Shown here: one piece after another, positions 1-40,302 of the stretch
Layout of the letters: each line of letters starts with the position of its first letter
How positions within the stretch are numbered: the first letter of the stretch is position 1
Assembly (NCBI GenBank): GCA_023244935.1
Contig: JAHFLJ010000001.1
Span: forward strand, 13,327-77,326
Direction: 5' to 3'
Length of the DNA stretch: 64,000 nucleotides
Source: Candidatus Liptonbacteria bacterium
GTDB taxonomy: Bacteria > Patescibacteriota > Minisyncoccia > UBA6257 > 2-01-FULL-56-20
Made by a program: the position numbers and the translations under genes
The notes under the pieces: model-generated
Database searches by the model: none
What the model saw: the letters and a program-made list of their open reading frames with translations, nothing else
What the model was told of the DNA's origin: nothing

Positions 1-796
1 CGACAACTCTTTCCGAAGCCGAAAATCCCGGCGAGTCGGAGTTGGTGCTATCGATAAAAATGCTATGAATTTTTTCTTCGGCCAGTCGATAAAAAATATC
101 CAAATTAGTCGGCTTTCCATTGGCATCGATATCCAATCGAAAATCCCCAAAATTAACCATCTTCCCTGCCGGAGTATTTAAAATAAAACCCAGAGCCTCG
201 GGGATGGTGTGTCCCACCGAAAAGAAATCGGCGGTCAAATGTTCCGATATCGGAATCTTGCTACCGTTTTTAACGGTAATGAAATTTAATTTTGGAGCAT
301 TCGGAAATTCCTCGTGTCTCTTCTCCACAATCGCTTTCGTAAACGGAGAAGTCAAAATCGGCGGGTTACCCAACTTCTCGATTAGATAATGAATCGCGGC
401 GATGTGATCGAAGTGGCCGTGAGTCAAAATAATTGCGCGAATATCCTTTTTACGATTTTCGAGAGATGAAACGTTGGGAATAATAAAATCTACTCCGGGG
501 GTTGCCTCTTCCGGAAACTGAATACCGACGTCGACTATTACAATCTCGTTCCCATATTCAAAATAAGAACAGTTTCTTCCGATTTCTTCCAATCCTCCCA
601 GCGGGATAAATTTAAGCTGAACTCCTTCGGAAGGAAGGAATCGCTCGTTATGTTTAGACGTTTGTTTTGTCGGTGCGCGTCTTACCGCACCGTGATGCGC
701 CGATCTTTCTTTTTTTACAAAGCCGGCGGTTCCCGACGCCCTCGAAGTCCTTTGTTGAGGACCGGAAGCGCGAGATCGTGATACATTCTGAATCAT
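1..796 (-). CDS. rnj: Ribonuclease J, 5' part (runs off the window start)
   Basis: Manual translation from ATG at 796 gives LKFIPLGGLEEIGRNC, IVDVGIQFP and ILTHGHFDHI (metallo-beta-lactamase HxHxDH motif). Not in the ORF track because it is truncated. Confidence 0.93.
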   Translation of the reverse strand, partial: MIQNVSRSRASGPQQRTSRASGTAGFVKKERSAHHGAVRRAPTKQTSKHNERFLPSEGVQLKFIPLGGLEEIGRNCSYFEYGNEIVIVDVGIQFPEEATPGVDFIIPNVSSLENRKKDIRAIILTHGHFDHIAAIHYLIEKLGNPPILTSPFTKAIVEKRHEEFPNAPKLNFITVKNGSKIPISEHLTADFFSVGHTIPEALGFILNTPAGKMVNFGDFRLDIDANGKPTNLDIFYRLAEEKIHSIFIDSTNSDSPGFSASERVV

Positions 797-947
797 TTTT
801 TTATTTGCTTTGGAGTAAAATTGATTAATATTGAGTTTTGACTAAAACAAAATCCAAAGCTATTTATAGAATTTTCGACAAATTCCATTTAGCTGGCGGT
901 GTTTATTCGATTAAATTATTTTAGGAATAAACTATTAACACCATCTG

Positions 948-1126
948 TGGACGAATAAGGAATTGAACCTTTAGACTGCCCTCACGCCAATGCCGTCTTT
1001 GTGCCGCGGGAGAGATTTGAACTCTCATGGTCTTGCGACCGCTGACACCTGAAGCCAGTGCGTCTGCCAGTTTCGCCACCGCGGCATTGGTATAAGGGAT
1101 GAAGCAACCAGCTTCACTACTCGTCC
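948..1126 (-). ncRNA. tRNA-shaped RNA enclosing tRNA-Leu
   Basis: Acceptor stem GGACGAG/UUCGUCC plus A; U8A9; 7-bp D-like stem with a UGGUU loop; T-arm AAGG-UUCAAUU-CCUU; 13-nt stem CCCUUAUACCAAU/AUUGGCGUGAGGG flanking the tRNA-Leu. Confidence 0.6.
1002..1085 (-). tRNA. tRNA-Leu(CAG)
   Basis: Acceptor stem GCCGCGG/CCGCGGC-A; anticodon arm CUGGC-UUCAGGU-GUCAG; long variable arm GGUC-GCAA-GACC; T-arm GAGAG-UUCAAAU-CUCUC. CCA is not encoded. Confidence 0.96.
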
Positions 1127-1264
1127 GTTTAAATTTACAAATTGTTTCAAGTTATTTCGCCGGCCGATTTCAACCTGCGCGAGACCTACCCTGAATACAC
1201 ACAAAATGGAGAGTTAAACGTTAATCAGATTATACCTGAATCCCCAAAAAACACAACTCCCATA

Positions 1265-5339: not shown

Positions 5340-5612
5340 CGAGATAGACACCAAAAAGAGATAAATCAACGAAAAGCATCCAATCACGCGGAGAATAGTT
5401 CTTCTTGGCCGGGCTACGAAGTTTGCCGAGCATGGTCTCCGCCTGTCGGCGGAGTCGGCAAGCTGAGTGCCAGTTCAAAACCCGCTGGGGTTTTGAATGT
5501 AGGCCAAAAAGGACTATTCGGAGCGCCCTGGACGAGTATGCCAATACTCTGTATACTATCAAAGTCCATTCAAAAGTCTTAACACTTCAGTAGGAGCCCC
5601 CCGAAAGGGATT
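5340..5612 (+). ncRNA. Structured RNA upstream of rny, candidate 6S RNA
   Basis: Long stem GAATAGTTCTTCTTGGCC/GGCCAAAAAGGACTATTC with internal hairpins. Location upstream of rny matches known 6S synteny in several phyla. Boundaries are uncertain. Confidence 0.4.
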
Positions 5613-5643
5613 TTAATGAAGATTTTAATCACAAAAAAATACA

Positions 5644-7164
5644 ATGTATACATATTTAGCAGCCATCGTGGCGCTGGTTTTAGGTTTAGGAATCGGATAC
5701 ATAGTCCGAAAAAAAATAGTAGCTAAACAGCTCGGAAGTCTGGACCAACAACTACAACAAAGAACGTCTGAAGCTGAAAACAAAGCCAAAGAGATTCTTT
5801 TTACCGCCAAAGAAAAAGCCTCGGAGATACTCGAAGAAACCCAGAAAGAAGAAAAAGAAAGAAAACGTGAAATTCTGGCGCTGGAAACAAAGATACACGA
5901 ACGCGAAGAAGCCATCGACAAAAAACTAAATACCCTCGAATACGAATCAAATTCCTTACGAAAAGAACGGGAGGTTATTGAAGGTAAAGTTAAAGAACTC
6001 GAAGAAGTAAAAGAAAAAACAAAAAAGGAACTGGAAAGGATTGGTGGCTTGAGCCGAGACGAAGCCCGCGAAGCATTGTTCACGGAAATAAAAGAAAAAA
6101 GCCGTGACGACCTTGCTCGGACCTCGCAAAAACTGGAAAAAGATCTTCGGGATGAAATCGAGAAAAAAGCTAAGGAAGTTATCACCATAGCCCTTCAACG
6201 CTATGCCCGTTCCCACGTTTCCGAATTAACCACCAGTGTGTTTCACCTCCAAGATGAAGAAATCAAAGGAAAAATTATCGGTCGCGAAGGTAGAAATATT
6301 CGCGCCCTGGAAAGAGCCACCGGTGTAGAATTTATTATGGACGAAACTCCGGACACGATTGTCATTTCTTCATTCGATCCATTCCGACGTGAAGTCGCCA
6401 GTCTCGCCTTAGAAAAACTTATTAAAGACGGCCGAATTCAGCCAGCCAAAGTTGAAGAAAAAGTAGAAGAGGCTAAAGAAGAACTAACCAAAAGAATGTC
6501 GGAAATCGGCGAAGCCGCCGCGATGGAAGTTGGAGTTTATGATTTACCGAAAGAAATCCTCCAACTGCTCGGCCGACTTCACTTCCGAACCAGTTTTGGC
6601 CAGAATGTTTTAACTCACTCGATTGAAATGACTTACCTGGCCGGAATGATTGCCGGAGAACTTGGACTCAATGTTGCCCTTGCGAAGAAAGGCGCGCTGG
6701 TCCACGATATCGGAAAAGCAATTGACCACGAAGTTGAAGGGACCCACGTGGAGCTTGGTATTAAAATCTTGCGCAAATATGGAGTTGGCGAAGACGTTAT
6801 CAACGCCATGCGCTCTCACCACGAAGACTATCCTTATGCATCCCCGGAATCTTTTGTGGTTACCGCCGTTGATGTCCTCTCTGCCGCCAGACCCGGAGCC
6901 AGACGTGGAACAATGGAAAATTATATTAAACGTCTCGGTGACTTGGAAAAAATTGCCGGCGAATTTCCGGGAGTTAAACAAGCCTATGCAATTTCTGCCG
7001 GACGCGAACTCCGAGTATTCGTTACTCCGGAAAAGATTGATGACTTTGGCGCTTTGGAAATGGCTCGCTCAATCGCCAACCGAATTCAATCCGAACTTAA
7101 GTTCCCAGGAGAAATTAAAGTTAATGTCATCCGCGAGACCAGAGCAGTGGAATACGCAAGATAG
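5644..7164 (+). CDS. rny: Ribonuclease Y
   Basis: N-terminal TM helix, coiled coil, KH motif KGKIIGREGRNIR, HD motif HDIGKA, C-terminal FPGEIKVNVIRE. Confidence 0.97.
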   Translation: MYTYLAAIVALVLGLGIGYIVRKKIVAKQLGSLDQQLQQRTSEAENKAKEILFTAKEKASEILEETQKEEKERKREILALETKIHEREEAIDKKLNTLEYESNSLRKEREVIEGKVKELEEVKEKTKKELERIGGLSRDEAREALFTEIKEKSRDDLARTSQKLEKDLRDEIEKKAKEVITIALQRYARSHVSELTTSVFHLQDEEIKGKIIGREGRNIRALERATGVEFIMDETPDTIVISSFDPFRREVASLALEKLIKDGRIQPAKVEEKVEEAKEELTKRMSEIGEAAAMEVGVYDLPKEILQLLGRLHFRTSFGQNVLTHSIEMTYLAGMIAGELGLNVALAKKGALVHDIGKAIDHEVEGTHVELGIKILRKYGVGEDVINAMRSHHEDYPYASPESFVVTAVDVLSAARPGARRGTMENYIKRLGDLEKIAGEFPGVKQAYAISAGRELRVFVTPEKIDDFGALEMARSIANRIQSELKFPGEIKVNVIRETRAVEYAR

Positions 7165-9881: not shown

Positions 9882-11615
9882 TTAGCCATTCTTCAGCATC
9901 CCCAACATCCCTTCGACGTCTCTAGTATTTATTATATCACTTTTTTTCGCCCAACCGCGACGCGCCTGCGTAATCCCAAATTTCAAAAAATCAAAATGTT
10001 CCGAGGAATGCGCGTCGGAATCAATCGAAAGTTTCACGCCGGAATTTACGCATCTGCGAATATAATCGTCCTTCAAATCCAGCCTATCCGGGTATGCATC
10101 AATTTCTAATATCGTTCCGGTCTCTTTAGCTTTGCGGATAAGCGCCTCGGCGTCTACGGCATATGCCTCTCGCCTTTTAATAACTCTACCGGTTGGATGG
10201 AAAATTATATCTACGTTCTTATTCTCCATCGCTCTACAAATCCTTGCAGTCTGCTCTTTGCCGGATAAATTGAAATTTGAATGTACCGCTCCCCCCACCA
10301 CCTCCAACCTGGAAAGTGTTTTATCCGACAAATCCATGCTTCCGTCTTTTAAAATATCGCACTCACTTCCCTTCAAAATTCTTATCTTGCCGGCGAACTT
10401 TTTATTTAATTTATCAATCTCTGCCATCTGTTTTAAAATTTTTTTATCGTCTAAACCTCCGGTCATCGCCAATCGTTTTGTGTGATCGGTAATCGCGATA
10501 TATTTTAGTCCGCGAGAGATAGCCACCTTCGCCATCTGTTCTATGGAGTGCGCGCCGTCAGTCCAATCGGTTTGCACCTGCAAATCGCCCTGTAAATCCT
10601 TGTAGCCGATAAGTTTCGGCAATTTACCGATCATCGCCGACTCAATTTCACCGGTATTTTCTCTAATCTCCGGCTCGACATACTGAAGTCCAAGCGCGGA
10701 ATAAATCTCCTCCTCAGTTTTTCCGGCAATCTGCTTAAGTCCTCGATAAAGCCCATATTCATTAAGTTTATAGCCTTTTTTTATCGCAAGTTTTCTTAAG
10801 CCGATATTGTGCATCTTAGAGCCGGTAAAATAATTCAATGCCGACCCATAAGAATTTCTTGGCACCACGCGCAAATCAACATCCAATCCGTTTTTCAATT
10901 TTATTGATGACTTAGTTTCTCCATTGGCAACAACCTTGGCAACCGCCTGCATAGAAACAAACTCTTTCATAATTTTTTTGGAATCCTTCACGATTGCCAA
11001 AATATCCAGGTCTCCCACAGTTTCTTTTCCTCTGCGCGTTGACCCGGCAATAACAACGGTTTCAACTCCGGCAACCTCCAGAAGTTTTTCCTTAATTTTT
11101 TCGGCAAATGGCAACGCCTCACCCAAGGTAAATCGCCCACCGGATTTCTTAAGGAACTCGATGCTTTTCAAAATATTTTGTTCTGCCTTCGTTCCGAATC
11201 CTTCAAGCTTAGAAACTTTATGAGCGTTCACTGCTTTCTCGAGAGTAGCCAAGTCTTTTATTTTTAAAGCAAGATATAATTTTTTTATAGACTTAGGTCC
11301 GAGCCCTTCGATGGCGCTAAGCTCTTTTAAATTAACCGGCACGGCTTTTTGAAGCTCCGCGTAATGCGAAGACTTCCCCGTCAGAAGAAATTCTTCGATA
11401 GTTTGCGCAATTGATTTTCCAACCCCGGGAATATTCTCAATTCCTTTAATTCCGTTAGCTTTATAGATACTCACAACCGAATCGGAAAGCTCGGAAACCG
11501 AATCCCCCGCTTTTTCGTATGCTCTCGGCTTAAAAGGTTCTTCTTGCATCGCCAAAAATTCTCCTATTTCGTAAAGTAGTTCCGATACTTCTTCGTTTGT
11601 TTTCTCTTTAATCAC
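9882..11615 (-). CDS. polX: DNA polymerase X family with PHP domain
   Basis: HhH IPGVGKSI, GSTRRGKETVGDLD, YFTGSKMHN, and PHP motifs ITDH and DSDAH. Confidence 0.93.
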   Translation of the reverse strand: MIKEKTNEEVSELLYEIGEFLAMQEEPFKPRAYEKAGDSVSELSDSVVSIYKANGIKGIENIPGVGKSIAQTIEEFLLTGKSSHYAELQKAVPVNLKELSAIEGLGPKSIKKLYLALKIKDLATLEKAVNAHKVSKLEGFGTKAEQNILKSIEFLKKSGGRFTLGEALPFAEKIKEKLLEVAGVETVVIAGSTRRGKETVGDLDILAIVKDSKKIMKEFVSMQAVAKVVANGETKSSIKLKNGLDVDLRVVPRNSYGSALNYFTGSKMHNIGLRKLAIKKGYKLNEYGLYRGLKQIAGKTEEEIYSALGLQYVEPEIRENTGEIESAMIGKLPKLIGYKDLQGDLQVQTDWTDGAHSIEQMAKVAISRGLKYIAITDHTKRLAMTGGLDDKKILKQMAEIDKLNKKFAGKIRILKGSECDILKDGSMDLSDKTLSRLEVVGGAVHSNFNLSGKEQTARICRAMENKNVDIIFHPTGRVIKRREAYAVDAEALIRKAKETGTILEIDAYPDRLDLKDDYIRRCVNSGVKLSIDSDAHSSEHFDFLKFGITQARRGWAKKSDIINTRDVEGMLGMLKNG

Positions 11616-39895: not shown

Positions 39896-40261
39896 GGGGA
39901 TGATGGGCTTCGCCGAGAGACGGAGAGCTTCCCTGCGAGCCGAGCGCAATCTCGCAAATCTTGCACAAACTACTAACTGCCAACTTTAAAGTTGCAGCTC
40001 CTGCCTACGCCTACGCGTAACGCACGGGGATCTCCTGCCTGATTTATCACGCAAGAGGATCGGCTAGCCTTTGCCCTTTGGGTTAATACCGGTCTTATAT
40101 AAAAGGACTACTTCGCGAAGAGGCGACACGACTCTCGCGGATAAAAAATCGTGTCGTCCTGATCAAAAATCAGAACCGTTTCAAATTTATTTTTGAAACT
40201 ACGCTCGTAGACGGGCTGTCTTTGCCCCTTTCGCACGAGGGTTCAACTCCCTCCATCTCCA
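39896..40261 (+). ncRNA. ssrA: tmRNA
   Basis: Acceptor stem GGGGAUG/CAUCUCC-A with a G3.U pair; T-arm GAGGG-UUCAACU-CCCUC; tag frame 39979-40020 reads ANFKVAAPAYAYA*; directly downstream of smpB. Confidence 0.95.
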
Positions 40262-40302
40262 CAAACAAAAACACCGACCATGAAGGTTGGTGTTTTTGTT
40301 TG
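40262..40302. terminator. Terminator after tmRNA
   Basis: CAAACAAAAACACCGACC-atgaa-GGTTGGTGTTTTTGTTTG. Confidence 0.8.

Follow-up and report, generated by a model that had tools for sequence, protein, structure and literature searches.

The tRNA-like domain of tmRNA and bacterial Y RNAs such as YrlA mimic tRNAs but have no anticodon for decoding; tmRNA and Y RNA presumably arose from tRNAs, and to our knowledge the ancestors of these mimics are not traceable. A tRNA gene can also be nested in another gene, as selC reportedly is in selB of Alphaproteobacteria. Bacterial genomes further harbor MITEs and MICs, which are short, protein-free elements with terminal inverted repeats that occur in several copies per genome and sometimes carry cargo. 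Two described systems combine disruption or nesting with tRNA genes themselves. In Lak megaphages, the intron of a tRNA-Thr(UGU) gene may itself encode a tRNA (Devoto et al., 2019, PMC6784885), and in the tRNA-dependent lysogeny of mycobacteriophages, an element disrupts a tRNA gene and replaces it (Guerrero-Bustamante and Hatfull, 2024, PMC10865867).

Here we describe a locus at which a working tRNA-Leu(CAG) gene is enclosed by a second, tRNA-shaped RNA, which we call the shell. It lies in the window, the whole 64-kb stretch of DNA that was analyzed, from a small-genome bacterium (genome G000; 712 kb, 31 contigs). Comparisons were made with a congener (G001) and with a genome of the nearest genus (G004, whose locus is L037). 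On the minus strand, a family-5 solute-binding protein gene is followed by a probable −10 box, the nested RNA and rnj.

The locus shares features with each of these systems and departs from each. As is predicted for the shell, tmRNA keeps an acceptor stem, T-arm and elbow, and a long helix in place of the anticodon arm leads to another RNA domain; the shell has no G3.U70 and no tag frame, no Ro60/TROVE protein was found in its genome, and the domain that it carries is a complete tRNA. The nesting recalls selC, except that the host gene selB is protein-coding. The inserted cassette is built like a MITE or MIC, yet it carries the cognate tRNA of the very gene it disrupted and its target duplication is inconsistent. 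As in the Lak tRNA-Thr(UGU), a tRNA shape lies within a tRNA shape and is conserved across genomes; there the outer gene is interpreted as an intron-containing tRNA, whereas here the outer RNA has no anticodon arm, the inner tRNA works and the host is a bacterial chromosome (PMC6784885). The element of the lysogeny system likewise disrupts and replaces, but the present one is ~128 nt long, has inverted-repeat ends and no integrase, and leaves the two halves close enough to pair around the new tRNA, where they are conserved afterwards (PMC10865867). A literature search for nested or disrupted tRNA genes in Patescibacteria, or for exapted tRNA remnants, found none described in titles or the beginnings of abstracts, and supplementary tRNA tables may list such loci. 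Replacement of a tRNA by an inserted copy is a known kind of event, achieved here through a miniature cassette; what is new is that the broken shell persists, apparently exapted.

A tRNA-Leu(CAG) gene enclosed by a tRNA-shaped shell

A preliminary description of this DNA had drawn an outer cloverleaf around tRNA-Leu(CAG), and we find every element of it at its claimed minus-strand position (Table 1). The T-arm holds in part: a canonical T-loop is present, but the T-stem of the source genome has just 4 bp and an A.A mismatch, compared with 5 bp in the congener. The shell resembles a tRNA in its 7-bp acceptor stem with discriminator base and in a T-arm with T-loop consensus, and differs from one in having no 5-bp anticodon stem, no 7-nt loop with U33 and no conserved anticodon, the triplet at the anticodon position being CCA in G000 and CTA in G001 and preceded by A in both. 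An Rfam scan of this region of the window matched nothing of the shell beyond the inner tRNA, and the 3' half of the congener's shell scores 21.4 bits with the Rfam tRNA model, under the 29-bit cut-off. ARAGORN, which the preliminary description had proposed to run on the flanks with the inner tRNA removed, calls a tRNA-Trp(CCA) in G000 but makes no default call in G001.

Table 1. Features of the nested RNA and its surroundings (window positions)
Feature	Position	Strand	Basis or remark
Shell acceptor stem, 7 bp	1126-1120 with 955-949; discriminator A948	-	sequence
Shell U8A9	1119-1118	-	sequence; A9 missing in G001
Shell D-like stem, 7 bp	1117-1111 with 1105-1099, loop UGGUU	-	sequence
Long stem, 12 of 13 paired	1098-1086 with 991-979	-	sequence
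Shell T-loop	967-961	-	sequence
Inner tRNA-Leu(CAG), working	1002..1085	-	ARAGORN; Rfam 48.5 bits; sole CAG reader called in G000
Cassette left end: TTCA (also old anticodon-loop bases) and 5' inverted-repeat arm	1086..1103	-	arm same in L053, L070, L149
Cassette right end: linker with CGGC, 3' inverted-repeat arm, CAG/CAAG end	976..1001	-	sequence comparison
Probable old gene, 5' half: acceptor strand, U8, D-like stem, GG loop	1104..1126	-	aligns with the intact L037 gene
Probable old gene, 3' half: anticodon-stem remnant, T-arm, acceptor strand, A73; variable arm deleted; no encoded CCA	948..975	-	
TATAAT, probable −10 box of the tRNA-Leu-rnj transcript	1229..1234	-	sequence, kept in G001; putative function
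Leader block with CTCC motif	1201..1222	-	invariant in G001
AU-rich stretch immediately preceding the shell; possible single-stranded leader for RNase P	1127..1144	-	invariant in G001; putative role
Conserved block ahead of rnj, apart from the shell	833..898	-	near-identical in G001 and in X9 contig
rnj (metallo-beta-lactamase of the RNase J family), continuing past the window edge	2..796	-	Pfam Lactamase_B matches

The 196-nt region is predicted to fold at −78.3 kcal/mol (z = −4.61; 0/200 shuffles equal). With the inner tRNA masked, the shell alone reaches z = −4.61 in G000 and −6.56 in G001, which none of 300 mononucleotide shuffles equaled in either genome. The inner tRNA is 98% identical between the two, and its two changes form a compensated pair in the variable arm. 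Both of the mutually exclusive folds that had been proposed appear in the folding model. In the free ensemble of either genome, a model that takes in neither tRNA tertiary structure nor co-transcriptional folding, the GCCG/CGGC extension of the long stem is predicted to be favored over the inner acceptor stem by ~4.6 kcal/mol, and the inner G1-C72 pair has a probability of 0.001.

The shell is very probably a broken resident tRNA-Leu(CAG) gene

What the preliminary description missed, in the light of sequence comparison, is that the shell stems from a broken resident tRNA-Leu(CAG) gene and that its long stem is the terminal inverted repeat of a cassette. We are highly confident that the outer RNA represents the former resident tRNA-Leu(CAG), which a cassette bearing another tRNA interrupted in the anticodon loop. 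An intact tRNA-Leu(CAG) lies at the same locus in the nearest genus (L037), where RnJ is 82% identical. When the G000 shell minus the cassette was compared with 105 tRNA-Leu(CAG) genes of the family, the L037 gene was the best match (51.4; next 44.1) and the inner tRNA ranked 29th of 105. For the G001 shell, L037 ties for second place (43.3, with 44.3 and 43.3 for two other genes). It is the alignment with the intact L037 gene that identifies the shell as the former resident: relative to it, the D and anticodon stems have together lost about 9 nt, and a single A-to-G change lets the start of the old D-arm pair with old anticodon-loop bases, giving the 7-bp D-like stem. The anticodon and variable arms are lost, and the acceptor stem, A73, the T-loop and the GG loop are kept.

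No second copy of the shell halves was found in G000. BLAST of the 5' flank against 125 family genomes gave a real match in G001 only, the eight others being weak matches of 17-35 nt (E 0.002 to 0.035), and a shell-specific pattern matched 0 stretches among metagenome contigs.

A miniature cassette and the replacement of tRNA genes

The cassette (~128 nt, ~1103-976) encodes no protein, starts with TTCA-TCCC and ends with GGG-CAG, and its inverted-repeat arms surround the inner tRNA. Terminal inverted repeats, lack of coding capacity and relatives elsewhere in the genome place it with MITE-type elements. Five tRNA-less elements of 104-128 nt with TTCA-TCCC...GGGA ends were found in G000, these being 5 of 23 scan matches where a shuffled genome gave 3. 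Target-site duplication is inconsistent: TTCA stands on both sides in L050 and in two of the G000 elements, and elsewhere the right end is CAAG or TGAA; among the clear nested cases TTCA is repeated in L050 only. The ~128-nt insert holds only the tRNA and the arms, with no element-encoded tyrosine integrase and no attP/attB core.

Broken Leu genes of two further genera (L053, L070) and of a metagenome contig (L149) contain nearly the same arms and tRNA. Since the cassette recurs in this way outside the genus, the long stem and its GCCG/CGGC overlap are properties of the cassette. The CGGC of the linker, which is invariant in G001, pairs with the first 4 nt of the inner tRNA, and overlaps of this type also occur in L046, L053, L070, L081, L113 and L149. 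The shells themselves met different fates. In L053 and L070 the shell T-loop is interrupted by palindromic inserts; in L149, which has the same insertion as L053, the shell is trimmed to the acceptor stem and an intact T-arm and may be a second retained shell. A cassette pattern matched 3 genome, 4 metagenome and 0 viral stretches. The three genome matches are loci already in the family set, and L149 is the only cassette among the four metagenome matches, L146-L148 not being nested. A search of 400 further genomes of the order for the start of the cassette gave no match; G001, G064 and G071 were not part of this sample.

Broken genes around working ones recur in the family. At least 10 of 103 loci outside the genus carry both halves of a broken Leu gene around a working one (L046, L050, L053, L056, L070, L073, L081, L088, L093 and L113; parts in L117 and L139), a count by eye that is a minimum and covers 27 of 105 loci, pattern-flagged or sharing the inner acceptor, and some others. 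More than 90 family loci have the same tRNA-rnj arrangement without a shell. Other shells match the live genes of congeners (L050 that of L043 at full score, L113 that of L104, L056 that of L045, and L081 those of three congeners), and the tRNA-Gly(CCC) of G001 sits within a broken copy of the live gene of G000. Of 26 tRNA pairs that share an anticodon between G000 and G001, drawn from the surroundings of 30 G001 calls, 12 show 82% identity or less, and the RNase J segments of the two genomes are 99% identical. Further, G000 holds many broken tRNA copies with palindromic inserts. On these sequence comparisons, small cassettes routinely replace tRNA genes in the group. None of nine other nested loci shares its shell with a congener (flank scores ≤18 vs 94 and 60 here), and at L103 only cassette arms remain.

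Variants of the arrangement were also seen elsewhere. The nearest-genus genome has a nested tRNA-Leu(TAG) whose cassette lies in the D-loop of the old gene (L008), and in another family a stranded 3' half lies behind tRNA-Leu(CAG) (L006, genome G025).

The shell is probably maintained by selection

Two full shell sequences (G000, G001) and partial contigs suggest that the shell is probably held by purifying selection. The pairs were defined on G000 alone, without reference to G001. Between the two genomes, rnj differs at 45 of 78 four-fold sites and at 78 of 201 third positions, compared with 9 of 64 paired shell bases (binomial 6e-13 vs four-fold sites, 1e-5 vs third positions). All 32 shell pairs read from G000 also form in G001, through two two-sided and three one-sided changes, and both mismatches of the G000 shell are pairs in G001. 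The D-like stem is invariant and therefore without covariation. The preliminary description had said that its idea of a tRNA inside a tRNA mimic should be given up if relatives had no conserved or covarying outer stems; because the outer fold is conserved in the congener with compensatory changes, the idea stands.

A random-change simulation gave P of 0.008-0.14 for at most 2 broken pairs alone, and P of 0.002-0.025 for at most 2 broken pairs together with two compensations. A shuffle control of the pair count was not significant (62/500), which is expected because the alignment has two rows. Changes in the T-loop are restricted to positions 57 and 59 and stay within tRNA consensus; the unpaired variable region and the adjoining leader hairpin have diverged freely.

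Between the same two genomes, the flanks of other tRNA genes have median identities of 0.46 upstream (n = 26) and 0.48 downstream (n = 25), versus 0.88 and 0.76 at the shell, and 4 of 26 other upstream and 3 of 25 other downstream flanks reach 0.78-0.88, some of them beside coding sequence. Other non-coding blocks are equally conserved (best 40-nt windows 0.97 and 1.0), so several non-coding stretches are under constraint and the shell is not exceptional among them. Partial shell sequences, with bases that are G001-like or new, come from contigs of sequencing runs X8, X9, X10 and X20, and none of these is a full third sequence. A contig from the RNA library X20 covers 989-1144, and no contig spans the whole stretch; it was not counted as expression because contigs show neither ends nor strand and a library may contain DNA.

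Tail inserts that start with an inverted copy of a tRNA T-arm lie at most 150 nt behind a tRNA in 7 of 8 G000 cases, the eighth carrying an inverted tRNA-Trp end. In G001, the tail insert behind the shell copies the T-arm of the shell, not that of the inner tRNA, and repeats the shell 3' end. This is suggestive only: whatever places these inserts may have treated the shell like the end of a tRNA.

Two other non-coding regions were noted in their own right. Window positions 5392-5660 (+), upstream of the RNase Y gene, are 87% identical in G001 over 272 nt; positions 5392-5600 fold at z = −6.5 into a closed multi-branch structure, a candidate unannotated RNA. This region has no Rfam match at E 10 save a weak P9 hit just outside, and no 6S RNA was found in G000 or G001. 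A 277-nt intergenic region 2.5-2.8 kb before the window (G000:C31, ~10527-10803) is 92% identical in G001 and is possibly a structured RNA.

Leader, rnj and the processing machinery

The TATAAT at the probable −10 box is not among the calls of our promoter scan, which demands a −35 match. The CTCC-containing leader block may pair with 948-941 and so close the whole element; this pairing is predicted in one G000 fold and is absent from the G001 fold and from longer G000 folds. In contigs of runs X9, X10 and X20 the alignment extends as far as 1144, the exact point at which two of them diverge. Across the family, the anti-Shine-Dalgarno-like motif YYCTCCW occurs upstream of tRNA-Leu(CAG) on the sense strand of 46 of 100 leaders versus 4 antisense, and it stands 12-32 nt behind a −10-like box in 21 of 100 loci (0.3 expected; leaders L033-L142). 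The conserved block ahead of rnj (833-898, minus strand) has the core GTCGAAAA, and GTCGAWA lies downstream of the tRNA in 11 of 105 loci vs 4 on the other strand. An AT-rich 73-nt palindrome (1273-1345) behind the solute-binding protein gene is missing from G001, and a similar one follows rnj.

The name RNase J for the rnj product is one that we presume from the preliminary description and from known motifs. The gene was matched in 118 of 125 family genomes, and the DNA upstream of 110 rnj genes contains tRNA-Leu(CAG) at 105 loci; because of this near-constant association, the tRNA-rnj neighborhood is ancestral and has no special bearing on the shell. The start of rnj lies ~150 nt past the shell, where neither alternative fold touches it, G001 has a ~170-nt insert in between, and a terminator scan between the tRNA and rnj found none.

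A CCA-adding-family enzyme is encoded in all three genomes (G000, G001 and G004), and most of their tRNA genes have no encoded CCA. RNase III was found in G000 and not in G001 (90% complete). No RNase Z above the family cut-off was found in any of the three, and tRNA 3' maturation may use RNase J or exonucleases. The RNase P RNA of G000 scores 91 bits, under the 100-bit cut-off. The RNase P RNA genes are oversized in G000 (G000:C18:31235-31719, 485 nt) and G001 (G001:C24:8275-8787, 513 nt), compared with 364 nt in G004. RtcB and Leu/Phe transferase were found in 0/3 genomes, and no Ro60/TROVE protein was found in G000, in a search whose control was positive in 2 of 14. ARAGORN calls in G000 a tRNA-Ile(TAT) and intron-containing tRNA-Asn(GTT) and tRNA-Thr(GGT), and makes no call for Ser(GCT), Ser(GGA), Arg(CCG) or a second Met. 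A separate tmRNA lies at window positions 39896-40262 (+), with the tag ANFKVAAPAYAYA.

Several identities for the shell were considered and rejected: a bacterial Y RNA, since no TROVE was found in G000; a tmRNA piece, given A3-U70 instead of G3.U70, no tag frame and the separate tmRNA; and a role via Leu/Phe transferase, found in none of the three genomes.

Discussion

We propose that a disrupted tRNA gene was exapted as a tRNA-shaped frame for processing or stability, an account that we rate, taken whole, as evenly balanced between right and wrong. The resident tRNA-Leu(CAG) upstream of rnj would have been split at its anticodon loop by the protein-free cassette, whose own tRNA-Leu(CAG) took over decoding. 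The broken gene would then not have been erased as in relatives; losing its anticodon and variable arms and gaining the D-like hairpin, it would since have been held by selection as a cloverleaf with the cassette stem at the anticodon position. The acceptor stem, A73, T-loop and GG loop are features read by RNase P and 3'-end enzymes, and a GG loop on a long D-stem is known from tRNA-Sec. With its acceptor stem and the elbow of D-loop GG and T-loop, the shell could serve as a substrate for RNase P cleavage at 1126 and for 3' processing after 948. These cuts would define and stabilize an intermediate of ~179 nt and fix where the rnj message begins. RNase P would free the inner tRNA if this folded first during transcription; alternatively, release would follow cleavage of the long cassette stem, possibly by RNase III.

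For the role itself, a processing or stability frame within the tRNA-Leu-rnj transcript, our confidence falls a little short of even. The frame is not needed for processing in general, because more than 90 family loci do without a shell. In a fuller version, tentative and on balance doubtful, the exapted, anticodon-less and elbow-forming mimic would enclose its replacement tRNA, be a substrate of the tRNA-processing enzymes itself and influence how the tRNA-Leu-RNase J transcript is expressed; such a mimic possibly ends as a CCA-tailed, leucine-accepting two-piece RNA.

The shell could instead be inert, a relic of the same origin with no function in its tRNA shape that persists among leader signals or through hairpin-driven DNA repair. 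Broken shells are common by-products at the rnj locus, G000 is full of broken tRNA copies with palindromic inserts, and the covariation comes from two sequences. Against inertness, 9 of 64 paired bases changed vs 58% of four-fold sites, the unpaired variable region and the adjacent leader hairpin diverged freely and T-loop changes kept to tRNA consensus. Other shells are not common to congeners, and L103 was left with cassette arms only. We consider inertness unlikely, though the likeliest of the alternatives.

Rather less probable is a stable mimic, whose 41-nt and 54-nt halves would stay paired once the inner tRNA is released, receive CCA and be bound or charged by LeuRS, serving as an anticodon-less leucine carrier or as a decoy for proteins that bind tRNAs. 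A CCA-adding-family enzyme is at hand in all three genomes; Leu/Phe transferase was found in none. The LeuRS of Aquifex depends on A73, U8-A14, G18-U55 and G19-C56 and can do without the anticodon arm (PMC2377443; PMC9976931), and removal of the anticodon arm or the variable arm mainly lowers affinity, with U8-A14 critical (PMC2377443). The shell lost the parts that Aquifex LeuRS spares and kept A73, U8, the GG loop and the T-loop (PMC2377443). The old A14 and A15 are paired in the remodeled 7-bp stem, however, so the U8-A14 contact is doubtful in the shell, and G001 has no A9.

The preliminary description had also offered a structural switch, in which extension of the cassette stem competes with the inner acceptor stem and couples tRNA-Leu maturation to rnj expression. 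The two folds lie ~4.6 kcal/mol apart in both genomes, the CGGC linker is invariant and no terminator was found between tRNA and rnj; as no RNase Z came to light either, trimming of tRNA 3' ends might fall to RNase J. The proposal is nonetheless unsupported and, in our judgment, improbable. The overlap is a general feature of the cassette (L046, L053, L070, L081, L113, L149) and recurs in copies inside decayed shells, the tRNA-rnj pair is mostly shell-less across the family, the rnj start lies outside both folds and beyond an insert in G001, and neither ligand nor terminator is apparent. Least credible is a spliced gene in which the inner tRNA is the intron of a second, missing tRNA, as the ARAGORN tRNA-Trp(CCA) call on the G000 shell and the uncalled Ser(GCT), Ser(GGA) and second Met might hint: a tRNA-Trp or amber suppressor was rejected since removal of the insert leaves no consistent tRNA (the triplet reads CTA in G001 and follows an A in either genome, and G001 yields no default call), an ordinary tRNA-Trp exists and G001 has an ordinary Ser(GCT), RtcB was not found in the three genomes, and the Rfam scan showed no group I intron or other intron family.

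Were the shell inert, the finding would be one more case of a replacement cassette. If the fuller reading of a processed mimic holds, the locus would document how a tmRNA-like or Y-RNA-like mimic arose from a tRNA whose ancestral form can still be seen in a neighboring genus. The intact ancestor in the nearest genus, fresh breakages in other genera, decayed shells and one retained, remodeled shell all occur at one locus, and because these stages stand side by side, the step from broken tRNA to functional mimic can be tested on a 179-nt transcript. Fast replacement of tRNA genes in these Patescibacteria also bears on the annotation of tRNAs and on the phylogeny of the group.
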